This document shows, in pieces, positions 14,234 through 63,106 of a stretch of 64,000 nucleotides of DNA. The stretch covers positions 5,332,001 to 5,396,000 of the forward strand of contig OZ024749.1 in NCBI GenBank assembly GCA_964016885.1. Reading direction: 5' to 3'. The first letter of the stretch is position 1, and the number at the start of each line of letters is the position of its first letter. The notes below the pieces were generated by a model, which did no database searches, was not told the origin of the DNA, and saw nothing but the letters and a program-made list of their open reading frames with translations. Made by a program: the position numbers and the translations under genes. Source of the stretch: Eledone cirrhosa. Taxonomy: Eukaryota.

Positions 14234-14492
14234 TAATATGCTCAGATGTATTTGTCTTTGAGCTTAAATTCTCAGGATATATTGGCGCATGCTTTTTGTC
14301 ATGAAACCCATGATTTCGATTTAGAGTAAATTCATTTAATTGATTTATCTTAATTTTGGACTTAGATATATATGCATATATATATATACATATACATATG
14401 TATATATACATATATATATATAAATATATATATATATACATATATATATATACATATATATATACATATATATATATAGATATATATATACA

Positions 14493-14761
<269 letters not shown>

Positions 14762-26750: not shown

Positions 26751-26789
26751 CATTATGTATAATGTCACGAATAGCAGCGGAAGAGACAT

Positions 26790-28392
26790 CACCAACAATA
26801 ACAACACCAAGAATAACAACACCAACGGCAATATACGCAACACCAACAACATAAACACATAAACACAGACAATAGCAACATTCTAGCAATTGAAAACAAC
26901 AACAATAACAACAACAACAACAGCACCAGCGACAACAACAACACCAGTGGTAATTGCGACAACACAACACCAACGGCAACAACAACAACACCAGCGGCAA
27001 CAACACCAGCGACAACAACAACAACAACAGCGACAACACCAGCGACAACAACAACAACAACAACACCAGCGACGACAACAACAACGACACCAGCGACAAC
27101 AACAACTACACAAGCGACAACAACAACAGCGACAACACCAGCGACGACAACAACAACAACACCAGCGACAACACCGGCGACGACAACAACTACACCAGCG
27201 ACGACAACGACAACAACAACAACAACGCCAACAACGACAACAACAACACCAACACCAGCGACAACAACAACAACAACAGCGACAACACCAGCGACAACAA
27301 CAACAACAACAGCACCAGCGACAACAACAACCACGACACCAGCGACAACAACAACAACAACAACACCAGCGACGACAACAACAACAACACCAGCGACAAC
27401 ACCGGCGACGACAACAACTACACCAGCGACGACAACGACAACAACAACAACAACGCCAACAACGACAACAACAACACCAACACCAGCGACAACAACAACA
27501 ACAACAGCGACAACACCAGCGACAACAACAACAACAACAGCACCAGCGACAACAACAACACCAGTGGTAATTGCGACAACACAACACCAACGGCAACAAC
27601 AAAAAACACCAGCGGCAACAACACCAGCGACAACAACAACAACAACAGCACCAGCGACAACAACAACACCAGTGGTAATTGCGACAACACAACACCAACG
27701 GCAACAACAAAAAACACCAGCGGCAACAACACCAGCGACAACAACAACAACAACAACACCAGCGACAACAACAACAACAACAACACCAGCGACGACAACA
27801 ACCACGACACCAGCGACAACAACAACTACACCAGCGACAACAACAACAGCGACAACACCAGCGACGACAACAACAACAACACCAGCGACAACACCGGCGA
27901 CGACAACAACTACACCAGCGACGACAACGACAACAACAACAACGCCAACAACGACAACAACAACACCAACACCAGCGACGACAACAACAACAACACCAGC
28001 GACGATAACAACGAGAACAACACCAGCGACAACAACAACACCACCAGCGACAACAACAACAACACCAGCGACGACAACAACGATAACGACACCAGCGACG
28101 ACAACAACAACAACAGCACCGGCGACAACAACAACACCAGCAACAACAACAACAACAGCAACACCAGCAACAACAACAACAACGGCAACAACAACAACAT
28201 TGACAGCAACAACAAAGTAAACAACAACAAGAATAACATTGACAGCAGCAACAACAAAGTAAACAACAACAACAACAACCAGAAAAACATTGACAGCAGC
28301 AACAACAACAAGAAAAACATTGACAGCAGCAACAACAAGAACAAGAACAAGAACAACATTGACAGCAGCAACAACAACACCAACAACAACAC
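26790..28392 (+). repeat. Complex (CAA)n-based trinucleotide array with ACACCAGCGAC spacing units
   Basis: Direct reading; gives PATTTT, poly-N and poly-Q frames with internal block duplications. Confidence 0.9.
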
Positions 28393-30056
28393 TTACGTGG
28401 CGGCGACTGCTAAAACAAGAATTTGTATTAACTCGAACATCTCAGACACAGAGAAACAGCTGGCCCAGGCGTGGATATTAATTAAATGCTAAAAGTCCTG
28501 GGCCAACCTAACCATCCGGAACGAAGCGATAGGGGCAATGCAAATGAAGACTTTTCATTTTCGATGTATTTCGGTGCACATTCGAGGCTGCATTGAAAGA
28601 CATCAAATATGATATTGAATAGAAAGCAAGGGCCAGGCAGTTTGGTACCATCTCGGTGCTGTTCAGTACAGAGGCCCTTGCCATTAAGCACTCCGTGGCA
28701 TCATGCAGAACGGAACGCATCATCATGTACCTGCCCTACGTAGGCAAAAGAATAGTGAAGTTCTGCAATCCAGGATCCCACCAGGACTGAACCTGTGGTG
28801 GCTCCTGCGACGCGTGGTCGAGTATGGTACTGACAGTACCCTCATAGATGTCAGAAAGACTGAGAGAAAGGACTGGTGCGGGATGGATTTGCTGCTAACG
28901 CCAGTGCCGCAGTGGAAATCTGCACCAACACGACACGGGCATCCCCACCAACAGCAACATCAGTCGAAGAACCACACACACACCAAAACCAACCCAGGGG
29001 GAAAACGAGGAAAGTTTTTCTATACTCCCTTCCCCTCAAAAGATACACACGTACAAAAGCTTAAGTGTACACAAAGACACAGACACACTTACAGCCACAG
29101 ACCCCTCATCTTCCAATTGTGAAGATGAGGGAAAACCCAAATCCGGCAAAAAAAGTAGAAAACACTCAAATAATAAGCCCCCACAAAGCGTAAGAACACC
29201 CACAACAAAACATGGAAACACGATCCTCGCAAACACTTCCCCAACAACACCAAAACCAACACCAACACTACCATCATCATTACCACAATCACCCAAACGC
29301 AAACAACAGACACATGAACAAATATACACACAGACACATGACATTGCAGACACCACACCCACAACAAACACAGAGACATCCGAAAAAACACCATCAAAAC
29401 CATCAACACCACAGTCACCCAAACGCAGACAAATAAAATCGCACCAACAAAACATAAGAAACTTCGTGCTTGTCAGAAAGGCCAACGAGAAATTGATGGC
29501 TCCCGTAACAGGAAGTGAAGAAATCCAAACAGTGGAAGATTTTTTATTCGAGCGTATACCGCGTGCCAGAAGCGTCGAAACTTCTGCAGGCACTAGCCCA
29601 ATATCCGTGCATTACTGAGTTGTGGACTTATGTCGAACAGTTGTTGTCACGTCTAGAAGGGATCTGCCTATCGGCCGAGTCCATAGTGAAAACCGACCCG
29701 CCGCCTTCTTTTGGCTAGGAAGGGCAGGCAATTTTCCTCTGTCTGGTGGCAGTAACGAAAGAGGTTGTATGGTGGACCAGGCTGAAAGGATTAAAGGCAG
29801 ACACTTTTCACATGAACTATTTGAAGTTTCACTTGGAAAGGAAGGTGAGGGTAGAGAGTGAAGTGCTCCCCCCTCCTCCCCCAGTAAACTTGCTAAAGGG
29901 TTGGTGATTGTTGGGGAACTTCTGTTGTTTTTTATTTTCATGTTTATTGTTATTGTTTTCATAATATTTGCTGGATTGTTGTGTAAAACCCTTACTGCCC
30001 GCGTCCATTGTATTATACCCTTTATGTCGGCTCTTGTGGCCAATAAATGAAACCAT
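28392..30056 (+). mobile_element. Decayed non-LTR retroelement region, possibly an L1/Tx1-like ORF1 plus 3' UTR
   Basis: Stop- and frameshift-riddled coding-like sequence (TYVAATAK...ARARQFGTISVLF...YVGKR...RIPP) ending in ttgtggccaataaatgaaacc; clade call is from memory, not a search. Confidence 0.4.
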
Positions 30057-37803: not shown

Positions 37804-38638
37804 ACCTACCTCCTCTTCACATCTGCTCATCCAGCTCATACACACACTAACATTCCACTTAACATAGCTAAACAAATCTACACAATAGTTTCAAACACAA
37901 GAACAAGATACCACACACTAGAGGAGATGAAAGATATACTCACCAAGAGAAAATACCCTCTAAATTTAATCAATGAAAATTCGAAAAGCAAAAAAATTAG
38001 TCCTCTGAGCAACAATAAGTGGAAAACAGTCATACAATAGATCTTCAACCCCCAAAACAAAGAAAGTTATAAACACATACACCTAAACCTGCCTATATTA
38101 GAAAAAGACAAAAACCTGAAAAACATCTCATAAATATATCCTGCTATTAACAAGCGAAATATAAAAAAAAAATACTAACTAAAGAAATACTGACAAGGGC
38201 AGAGCTGCAAACCACAATTACAGAACCCCATGTGAAAAGATGTAACTGACCGCATTGTGGAATTTGCAACTACCTACTGGAAGGGCATGAATTCCACTTC
38301 ACAGACAGTCTATCTTCAAAATTAAGAAGATTCCGTGCAACTTGAAAAACTTAATTTACGTCATAACCTACAGAGGTTGCCGTGAATATTATATAGGACA
38401 GAGAGGGTTAACACCCCGATAAAGATTGACAGTCCACAGACAACAATTTAGAACTCCATACACTAGGAAAATCCTCCTCAGTAAATATAAAGGAGAGTGC
38501 GGAGGATCAACAGTACCAAAGTTTGATGTTTCCCCCGTGTACCAATATGTCTATGAAATCACGGAGCAAGCTAGAATTGATAAAGAGAAAATGTTTATTA
38601 AAATATCCAAATTAAGTTTTAACTCACATACAACATAA
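37801..38638 (+). pseudogene. Penelope-like element remnant: RT C-terminal region, Cys-rich linker and GIY-YIG endonuclease
   Basis: YLLFTSAHPAHTHTNIPLNIAKQIYTIVS...RKYPLNLI; KRCN*PHCGIC; NLIYVITYRGCREYYIGQ...RLTVHRQQ...KEKMFIK; contains stops and frameshifts. Confidence 0.88.
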
Positions 38639-48986: not shown

Positions 48987-51903
<2,917 letters not shown>

Positions 51904-51972
51904 AAAAGACGTAAAATAAGAAAATATTTTTTTAAAAAATTTTTAAAAAATTTTTTACTTACTTAAATTTTC

Positions 51973-52054
51973 ACTCCAACTAATTAGTTTCTGCAATGGG
52001 ATAAAGACAGTTACATAATCCAACTGTCGAGAATTCATTGCGTCATCAGGGAGT
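51973..52054 (-). ncRNA. Type I hammerhead ribozyme, family H
   Basis: Reverse complement of the 52961 motif. Confidence 0.85.
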
Positions 52055-52526
52055 CTATTCTCAGCTGAGCCTCCAGGCAATGCGCGGACACTGGCGGCTC
52101 ATATAAAAATAATAATTCGGTAGAAAGAACAGCTAGGCGAGGACTGGATTCTATGTACTGAAATTCTCACTGCTTCCAGTCAAATGGCCGATTCTAAAGA
52201 ATCAATCACGTGACATAGAGGCTAGTTAGAAGGAATGGGATGGTAAGATGACTGACGCCTACTAACACCCCAAAAAAAATTTTGAAGTGGTTTTGGCAGG
52301 TTTGCTCGACAAATCAGTGATTTGGAGATAAATATAGATAATTTAATATATCAACTAACATAGGCGCACAGATGTACGTCCATGCCAGCAAATACACAGG
52401 TTATGTCATAGTACCTAGGTGGTTCAATGCAGGAGGGTGCAGAACAATAATATAAAAGACGTAAAATAAGAAAATATTTTTTAAAAAAATTTTTAAAAAA
52501 TTTTTTACTTACTTACTTAAATTTTC

Positions 52527-52608
52527 ACTCCAACTAATTAGTTTCTGCAATGGGATAAAGACAGTTACATAATCCAACTGTCGAGAATTCATTGCGTCAT
52601 CAGGGAGT
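52527..52608 (-). ncRNA. Type I hammerhead ribozyme, family H
   Basis: Reverse complement of the 52961 motif, 554 bp from the previous copy. Confidence 0.85.
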
Positions 52609-52960
52609 CTATTCTCAGCTGAGCCTCCAGGCAATGCGCGGACACTGGTGGCTCATATAAAAATAATAATTCGGTAGAAAGAACAGCTAGGCGAGGACTG
52701 GATTCTATGTACTGAAATTCTCACTGCTTCCAGTCAAATGGCCGATTCTAAAGAATCAATCACGTGACATAGAGGCTAGTTAGAAGGAATGGGATGGTAA
52801 GATGACTGACGCCTACTAACACCCCAAAAAAAATTTTGAAGTGGTTTTGGCAGGTTTGCTCGACAAATCAGTGATTTGGAGATAAATATAGATAATTTAA
52901 TATATCAACTATATGAGCCGCCAGTGTCCGCGTATTGCCTGGAGGCTCAGCTGAGAATAG

Positions 52961-53042
52961 ACTCCCTGATGACGCAATGAATTCTCGACAGTTGGATTAT
53001 GTAACTGTCTTTATCCCATTGCAGAAACTAATTAGTTGGAGT
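52961..53042 (+). ncRNA. Type I hammerhead ribozyme, family H
   Basis: ACUCC CUGAUGA C GCAAUG..GACAGUU..AACUGUC..CAUUGC A GAAA CUAAUUAG UU GGAGU; palindrome ACUAAUUAGU, GUU site. Confidence 0.88.
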
Positions 53043-53276
53043 GAAAATTTAAGTAAGTAAGTAAAAAATTTTTTTAAAATTTTTTTAAAAAATATTTTCT
53101 TATTTTACGTCTTTTGTATTATTGTTCTGCACCCTCCTGCATTGAACCACCTAGGTACTATGACATAACCTGTGTATTTGCTGGCATGGACGTACATCTG
53201 TGCGCCTATGTTAGTTGATATATTAAATTATCTATATGTATACATATATATGTATATATATATATATGTATATATG

Positions 53277-53311
<35 letters not shown>

Positions 53312-53316
53312 ATATG

Positions 53317-53363
<47 letters not shown>

Positions 53364-53378
53364 GTATATATATATATG

Positions 53379-53411
<33 letters not shown>

Positions 53412-53435
53412 GTATACATATATATATATGTATAC

Positions 53436-53521
<86 letters not shown>

Positions 53522-53550
53522 GTATATATATATATGTATATATATATATG

Positions 53551-53623
<73 letters not shown>

Positions 53624-53624
53624 G

Positions 53625-53737
<113 letters not shown>

Positions 53738-53839
53738 GTATATATATATATGTATATATATATATGTATATATATATATGTATATATATATATGTATATA
53801 TATATATAAATATGTATATATATATATATGTATATATAT

Positions 53840-53914
<75 letters not shown>

Positions 53915-54040
53915 ATGTAGGATGTGAGTTTTATTGTAGTACAATAAAGCAATGCAGATATCGGATAAGAAGCACTCTACAGTTTGTAGGACTGGAGTAT
54001 GCATAATATAAGATCAAAAGATGGTTAAAGGAGTTCCATA

Positions 54041-54345: not shown

Positions 54346-54598
54346 TGCTCATCCACACATGTCTGTCTACTAACCTTGAAATTATAAAGACCAACCAGAT
54401 GTGAGAAAAACCACAGACCCTCCATCTCAACTCACCTTTTGAAAAGCAGAAGAACTGCGAAACCAAATAAATATATATATTTAAAAAAAAATAAGACTTC
54501 AGTTGCATTTTCGATTTCATCCCTTTTTCTTTATACTTCCACTCGTGTAGGACACCTCGGTTATTTTTCATTTTGTAAAAAAAACCTCACTTTCTAAT
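54346..54598 (+). mobile_element. Family I element; HHR cleavage site removed by a short deletion
   Basis: ccttttgaaaagcagaagaactgcgaaacc/aaataaa lacks ggtaaaggaacc; reverse complement of ~56222-56445. Confidence 0.85.
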
Positions 54599-54609
54599 AT
54601 ATATATATG

Positions 54610-62550: not shown

Positions 62551-62605
62551 ACTGGTATATATATTTCAGTGACAGCCATCTTTGGCTGTGACCTCTTCAG
62601 GCAGT
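62551..62605 (-). ncRNA. Type I hammerhead ribozyme, family K (first stem I pair mismatched)
   Basis: Minus strand: ACUGC CUGAAGA GGUCACAGCCA aaga UGGCUGUCACU GAAA UAUAUA UA CCAGU. Confidence 0.78.
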
Positions 62606-63051
62606 TTGAATTAGTATGGTATAGACAAGTACATATGTTATTTAGGTGTATGATATTGTCAATACTCTGATATGCCCAGTTCCTTGTTGGGTTGTTAATT
62701 CACTGGGGAACTGGAGTCATATGACTCCAGTTCCTCATTGAAATAACAACCCAACAGGGAACTGGGCATATCAGATGACTCCAGTTCCTCATTGAAATAA
62801 CAACCCAACAGGGAACTGGGCATAACAGATGACTCCAGTTCCTCATTGAAATAACAACCCAACAGGGAACTGGGCATATCAGATGACTCCAGGTCCTCAT
62901 TGAAATAACAACGCAACAGGGAACTGGGCATATCAGATGACTCCAGTTCCTCATTGAAATAACAACCCAACAGGGAACTGGGCATATCAGAGTATTGGCA
63001 ATATCATACACCTAAATAACATATGTACTTGTCTATACCATACTAATTCAA

Positions 63052-63106
63052 ACTGCCTGAAGAGGTCACAGCCAAAGATGGCTGTCACTGAAATATATAT
63101 AGCAGT
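63052..63106 (+). ncRNA. Type I hammerhead ribozyme, family K
   Basis: ACUGC CUGAAGA GGUCACAGCCA aaga UGGCUGUCACU GAAA UAUAUA UA GCAGU then AAUAAA; 5-bp stem I, 10 of 11 pairs in stem II, palindrome AUAUAUAU. Confidence 0.9.

Follow-up and report, generated by a model that had tools for sequence, protein, structure and literature searches.

A young insertion of a high-copy hammerhead tandem repeat in Eledone cirrhosa, with two fixed 3' ends and arm starts near the predicted ribozyme cut

Introduction

How does a non-coding tandem of hammerhead ribozymes (HHRs) come to lie beside an inverted, truncated copy of itself, and which form of its RNA served as the template? Such a locus is present in a 64,000-nt stretch of the Eledone cirrhosa genome, hereafter the window. 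In Penelope-like elements (PLEs), the role of the HHR, the strand and form of the template (linear, circular or antisense) and the way in which the inverted copy and the tail arise are left open in the relevant sections of PMC8557442, PMC3846280 and PMC11167929. We take the locus to be a recent insertion of a non-LTR retrozyme, here a 554-nt hammerhead tandem repeat that is non-coding and present in high copy number, likely written in trans into (TA)n by a PLE (probability roughly 0.8). This type of element has already been described; the evidence on its mechanism is what is useful here.

Structure of the insertion

The features of the window are listed in Table 1, in which units are numbered so that u1 is the G just after the predicted cut GUU|G. 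Two arms point outwards into (TA)n from a 5'-to-5' joint; the (TA)n lies on both flanks of the insertion, and a target-site duplication is unreadable within such a microsatellite. The three HHRs, the third of them inverted, fall where a first-pass annotation of this DNA had placed them, and the 554-nt spacing that it gave is the distance measured between the minus-strand cut sites. Its description of two almost identical units on the minus strand holds for the near-identity (98.5% both for the tandem copies, over 466 nt, and for the inverted arm, over 332 nt) but not for two whole units, as the minus arm comprises 1.8. Monomer and tandem are non-coding, with a longest ATG ORF of 27 codons, and the 554-nt monomer folds with z = -5.6 relative to shuffles. 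The diverged piece that had been pointed out near 14490-14640 is indeed related: its alignment over 155 columns scores 199, and the best of 300 shuffles scores 88.

Because the same architecture recurs in 51 of 57 two-armed loci, an assembly artefact is unlikely for the family. When contigs from four runs were compared with positions 52520-53050, the family was present at very high depth in run X4, as small pieces in X7 and X8, and not at all in X1, and no listed piece spans the junction at 52910; these contigs carry no information on expression.

Table 1. Features of the window (positions in the window; u, position in the unit)
Feature	Position	Strand	Remarks
Arm A	51900..52911	(-)	1.8 units: u175-554, whole unit 52531-51978, u1-82
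Arm A 3' end			fixed site A (...CTTTTATAT), fused to (TA)n
Arm B (inverted)	52910..53237	(+)	u427-554, then u1-200
Arm B 3' end			fixed site B (...ATCTATAT), fused to (TA)n
Head-to-head (5'-to-5') inversion junction	52910..52911		TA overlap, 2 nt
554-nt monomer between two predicted HHR cuts	51978..52531	(-)	
118-nt tail, site A (u82) to site B (u200)	53120..53237	(+)	at one insertion end only
Type I HHR 1	51973..52054	(-)	core 52049-51988; predicted cut GUU|G between 51978 and 51977
Type I HHR 2	52527..52608	(-)	core 52603-52542; predicted cut between 52532 and 52531
Type I HHR 3	52961..53042	(+)	core 52966-53027; predicted cut between 53037 and 53038
Left target microsatellite (TA)n/(TATG)n	50690..51899		
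Right target microsatellite (TA)n/(TATG)n	53238..53915		
Old-subfamily fragment, u56-204	14490..14640	(+)	77%, without HHR; site-B end inside (TA)n; separate insertion
TATA-like CATATAAAAA	52650-52670	(+)	strand opposite HHR; putative promoter role
CACGTG palindrome within unit (putative promoter role)	52765-52775		
Second HHR family, six copies	42181(-), 43390(+), 45693(+), 50593-50639(+), 54049(-), 54303(+)		
Inverted HHR-bearing element	44110(-)/44613(+)		helix III ACUAGU
Inverted HHR-bearing element	62564-63093		core CUGAAGA with AUAUAU
PLE family A 3' ends	54385-54600, 56072(+), 56364(-)		atypical HHR core
Broken PLE RT thumb + GIY-YIG fragment	37807-38626		42-50% identical to family A
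Long (AAC)-rich low-complexity tract	26780-28400		open frames of 467-550 codons, both strands

The hammerhead ribozyme

Each HHR has stem I ACUCC/GGAGU, the core CUGAUGA...GAAA, an extended stem II and the palindromic helix III ACUAAUUAGU. Rfam at the gathering threshold gave 0 matches in the window, and the HHR call is supported by covariation rather than by Rfam. Among 17 diverged variants of the family (19 cluster representatives minus one with a deletion and one with a changed stem I), 9 of the 21 pairs change on both sides and 92.9% of cells pair, compared with 33-45% in slid controls; the covariation score was reached by 0 of 500 shuffles, a test that the relatedness of the sequences inflates. 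The 5' core and stem II, which lay outside the search word used to find loci, show 0-2 deviating letters per column in ~95 units from 59 unbiased loci, and elsewhere in the unit most 40-nt blocks of the same loci deviate by 3-12%.

The cut triplet, absent from the first-pass annotation, is GUU (U17). This triplet is atypical, and U17 triplets cleave slowly; one PLE family in the same genome is also U17 (CUU). The 12-nt palindrome of helix III forms no hairpin alone and is predicted to form a 12-bp duplex of -10.8 kcal/mol, which suits the double-hammerhead fold that had been suggested for it. A double hammerhead is the expectation for a palindromic helix III in the relevant part of PMC4209133. 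Stem I of the predicted circular monomer has a pairing probability of only ~0.3.

Distribution in the genome

The assembly of 3.0 Gb holds 4,396 exact 23-mers spanning the cut, against 0 for the control. We analysed 97 loci, namely the 38 best matches (window included) and 59 consecutive loci in the first 88 Mb of C1; the latter are all the loci behind the first 100 matches listed there and are treated as an unbiased set. They are mostly 85-99% identical to the window unit, and 93 whole units were cut from the 38 loci. Copies of 97-100% identity on many contigs agree with the young age proposed for the insertion, and older subfamilies of ~70-80% identity, which keep the unit length (a ~550-nt period) and the ends, agree with the proposal that the family is older than the insertion. 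At least two consecutive short tandem units, each with a type I HHR, are present, and the insertions of the family sit in (TA)n.

No RT or endonuclease contiguous with the unit was found in 166 fetched stretches plus the window, and no ORF with RT and GIY-YIG lies in the element, so that it does not qualify as an autonomous PLE. Nor does it have the layout of plant LTR retrozymes, in which type III HHRs in LTRs surround a unique core; the topology is type I and the units are head-to-tail. The dispersed, multi-copy family co-occurs in the genome with autonomous PLEs that have intact frames. The identity first proposed, a retrozyme with a link to PLEs, is supported: a non-coding family that forms arrays in (TA)n fits the known non-LTR retrozymes, which derive from PLEs. 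It could be argued that the unit is a mere terminal repeat (pLTR) of an unseen autonomous PLE, 5'-truncated and not self-propagating, since its anatomy, an HHR followed by two 3' sites, equals a PLE end and since Xenopus retrozymes are related to pLTRs in the relevant sections of bioRxiv 10.64898/2026.07.22.740005. This is highly improbable in view of the head-to-tail arrays of whole units with nothing coding between the HHRs, the lack of a contiguous RT in the 166 stretches, and the ~550-nt period kept in subfamilies at ~70% identity.

Penelope-like elements and other HHR elements

The autonomous PLEs of the genome encode an RT with a C-terminal GIY-YIG and have small HHRs of their own and two ends. 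Two-armed copies pair the two ends (A+B) in 5 of 5 cases in family G, where the tail is ~43 nt, and in the one two-armed copy each of families D and E. Family G, with 37,509 candidates, has many intact frames of 900-905 codons (~900 aa; L236 and G000 loci), an unusual linker CCxxxxCx7C and only ~24% identity to Neptune-type families; it is likely active. Family A has the HHR core UUGAAAA instead of CUGANGA, and likewise families E and F. The unit showed no sequence homology to 64 sampled PLE-bearing stretches (32 + 32, out of >10,000 GIY-YIG candidates). Two candidate links to a particular PLE were rejected. At L146, an old unit lies 1.9 kb behind a PLE ORF, and it is a separate insertion in (TA)n beyond the PLE's own end. 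L040 resembled a chimera with one arm from family G and the other from an old retrozyme. Had it arisen in a single event, the G arm should end at site B of G; its end is at site A, and the locus was therefore rejected as evidence for G as the partner.

A second HHR family (UGCGCA), with helix III AUGCGCAU and the triplet AUA, has six copies in the window. Its inverted pairs end ~45 nt and ~135 nt past the cut, one in each arm, so the same two-end rule holds there. Genome-wide it has 108 head-to-head joints, often at the palindrome.

Two fixed 3' ends and arm pairing

The 3' ends of the family, absent from the first-pass annotation, lie at site A (u82) or site B (u200), 118 nt apart, and both end in TATAT and are fused to (TA)n. 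Partial tandems with an adjoining inverted, 5'-truncated copy make up 57 of the 97 loci. Among these two-armed loci, 51 are A+B and none pairs two A ends or two B ends; a broken or split arm leaves the other 6 unclassed, of which L078 reads as A+B in a separate analysis. The single-armed loci number 39 (27 ending at A, 10 at B and 2 unclassed), and 1 further locus is complex. Some single-armed loci conceal a very short second arm (e.g. L089 and L113). Four others (L080, L106, L114 and L116) have a common 5' end at u181-186, where ATATAT of the unit matches the (TA)n target, and at L108:3783-3825 the site-B end is repeated four times (AAATTATCT), as if priming at B had restarted.

By sequence comparison, the two arms of a locus share one source sequence. 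In 16 unbiased loci with enough overlap, the arms within a locus differ by a median of 0.9%, compared with 7.1% between loci, and the partner arm is within the top 10% in 15 of these 16 and in 12 of 19 young loci. In L1 twin priming, two cDNAs are likewise joined 5'-to-5' through short microhomology with both 3' ends facing the flanks; the first L1 site is the poly(A) end and the second is variable, whereas the element here uses two fixed internal sites.

The inverted arm might instead be created by fold-back or self-priming on one cDNA, or from an antisense template, as considered in the relevant part of PMC3846280. Some joints are palindromic (L117, L126 and L075), the arm starts lie within 25 nt of each other in 11 of the 51 A+B loci, and the second HHR family often has its joints at the palindrome (14 of the 50 listed), all of which would fit such an origin. 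In the other 40 loci, however, more than 25 nt separate the starts, and the longer arm is A in 30 and B in 21 of the 51, so that neither arm was simply copied from the other. Moreover, the starts described below stop at a bond that is cleavable only in sense RNA, and we consider fold-back or an antisense template improbable.

Arm starts at the predicted cut

Genome-wide, 32 arms preceded by two non-T letters have u1 itself as their first base, and all 31 that were examined are true ends. As controls, u3 gave 32 matches (16 of 21 examined were true), u542 gave 27 (17 of 20 true by script, 11 by eye with old HHR variants removed), and u520 and u477 gave 5 unexamined matches each. The start filters keep unequal shares of events; after a correction for filter capture from base composition, which is a rough estimate, u1 stands ~2.5 times above its neighbours and 4-9 times above distant sites. 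A sharp single-base peak of starts at u1 was considered and rejected, the nearby controls being almost as high before correction, and the excess of single-arm starts is a broad hump from u542 to u10.

The signal is clearer in the two-armed loci. We collected 32 head-to-head joints in which both arms start near the HHR (37 loci reading through u3, minus 1 with an unrelated spacer, 2 with another stem and 2 with a TA spacer; the search covers starts up to u3, and offsets were read by hand). Both arms start within u553-u3 in 21 of them. For near-symmetric joints the proportion is 21 of 23, compared with 22% expected, and the adjacent 12-nt palindrome is used by only 2 of the 32. These 21 cut-site joints, two of which are a duplicated pair, are mostly blunt or carry 1-2 additional A/T; 3 are exact u1/u1 joints. 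In addition, bare stubs of u1-82 + u1-200 lacking the HHR make up 6 of 28 loci (L159, L163, L183, L185, L187 and L188), and these are the product expected from a fully cut linear monomer. This concentration of starts at the predicted scissile bond makes it likely that some of the templates were linear RNA of the sense strand, cut by the ribozyme. By hand counts, 7 of 22 family G joints are at the cut (10 with filler) and 5 at the palindrome, and in the UGCGCA family 9 of 50 listed joints (108 in total) are at the cut and 14 at the palindrome; as a general trait, the pile-up is intermediate in the former and weak in the latter. The relevant sections of the surveyed literature, the main texts of openly available papers, contain no report of cut-site starts or of a count of strict A+B pairing.

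An RT stall at the folded HHR could possibly mimic a cut end. Carried further, the HHR would be a passenger: uncut read-through multimers would be the templates, the u1 starts would be stalls, and arrays would grow by later duplication at the DNA level. The breadth of the single-arm hump and the GUU triplet speak for this, as does the finding that HHR cleavage is dispensable for the anole PLE in vitro, with no RNA reads ending at the cut in the pertinent sections of PMC11167929. Against it stand the blunt u1/u1 joints without microhomology, the ratio of cut-site to palindrome joints (21 to 2), the core and stems kept with compensatory changes in subfamilies ~30% apart, and the cDNAs of another family, which usually pass the cut. 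We hold it to be unlikely, and regard cleaved sense RNA as the better account of the starts.

Arrays: circle or linear multimer

The longest arrays have 9 whole units per arm, and their units meet exactly at the cut. Whole units show 1.9 substitutions within a locus compared with 3.7 between loci, and at L057 three substitutions are common to all 9 units. Such arrays and locus-wide variants are what would be seen if a ligated 554-nt monomer circle were the sole template and the arrays its laps, as the first-pass annotation and Cervera and de la Pena (2020) would have it, and circular RNAs have been shown for other animal retrozymes in the relevant sections of PMC7229834. Private variants, however, recur within arms at distances of 2-6 units. 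In the 8 arms that comprise four or more whole units, none of the 9 patterns joins neighbouring units, against an expectation of 2.97; the count leaves out one neighbouring pair located in masked homopolymer sequence. Independent errors in each lap would not yield such a distribution. A circle, moreover, has no 5' end, and yet the arm starts pile up at the cut. A monomer circle as the only template is thus doubtful and, because an excess of copies start at the cut, linear cut RNA is the better candidate for one template beside any monomeric circle.

The recurrence suggests two rounds of copying of multi-unit blocks. It fits a multi-unit circle, a structured source array, later DNA duplication or assembly mixing, and it equally fits unequal crossover, as the passenger explanation would have it. 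For the element here, the 554-nt circle is a prediction by analogy with the retrozymes of coral, mussel and axolotl (PMC7229834, relevant sections), and the chance that a circle was the source of the long arrays seems to us about even. Of the Xenopus retrozyme dimers, only 1 of 9 was cleaved in vitro in the relevant section of bioRxiv 10.64898/2026.07.22.740005.

Comparison with known elements

The closest systems are the non-LTR retrozymes of animals (Cervera and de la Pena 2020, PMC7229834; Li, Clavereau and Pollet 2026, bioRxiv 10.64898/2026.07.22.740005), compared here by their relevant sections. They share with the family the non-coding tandem units with one type I HHR each, the dispersed multimers, the low GC, the co-occurring PLEs and the palindromic helix III. 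The 554-nt unit is longer than the 170-400 nt circles tested in 2020 and falls inside the range given in 2026 (51-972 bp). Its GUU triplet sets it apart, and the fixed 3' ends, inverted arms and cut-site starts mapped here do not appear in the relevant sections of those papers. Circular RNA was shown for the published elements, whereas here it is predicted.

With EN+ PLEs (Craig et al. 2021, PMC8557442; Arkhipova et al. 2013, PMC3846280; relevant sections) the family shares a partial tandem with an adjoining inverted, 5'-truncated copy, a tail at one end and microsatellite targets that hide target-site duplications. It differs from them in having no ORF and a tail of 118 nt instead of 30-40 bp, and the one-end rule is quantified here (51 of 57, no A+A or B+B exception). 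For the anole PLE Poseidon_Ac in vitro (Frangieh et al. 2024, PMC11167929, relevant sections), two RT start sites bound the tail, and both DNA strands are nicked and extended. As here, the two internal start sites lie downstream of the HHR and the targets are AT-rich. The Poseidon_Ac start site is not homologous to the target, whereas both sites here end in a target-matching TATAT; no strand difference in start site was seen for Poseidon_Ac, whereas the arms here pair A with B; and the sections concerned gave no evidence for a cut-RNA template, whereas here the starts pile up at the cut.

Proposed mechanism and implications

The RT and endonuclease of a PLE would likely write the element in trans into the (TA)n microsatellite. 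A multimeric RNA of the sense strand would be transcribed, and some of its HHRs, not all, would cut, probably in a double-hammerhead fold; we consider this step probable. With slightly more confidence, we propose that the PLE protein would nick both (TA)n strands and that two cDNAs would begin, at site A (u82) and site B (u200), each beside a target-pairing UAUAU. The cDNAs would extend 5'-wards until fall-off, microhomology or a cut 5' end, and would then be joined head-to-head. Because a fully cut monomer would yield only HHR-less stubs, the retrozyme would persist through uncut multimers or re-ligated circles. In its full form the proposal is tentative: the PLE would copy sense-strand, hammerhead-cut RNA in vivo, with an enzyme, probably a dimer, that is obligately asymmetric and uses A on one nicked strand and B on the other, and fully cut monomers would be dead ends, survival depending on incomplete cutting at the slow GUU and on multi-unit circles.

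If this is true, multi-unit circles would account for the variants that recur every 2-4 units in the arrays. The family comprises thousands of short, fully assembled insertions in which the PLE questions raised at the outset become countable, and its 554-nt RNA with mapped start sites, together with the intact PLE proteins of the same genome, suits a test in vitro.
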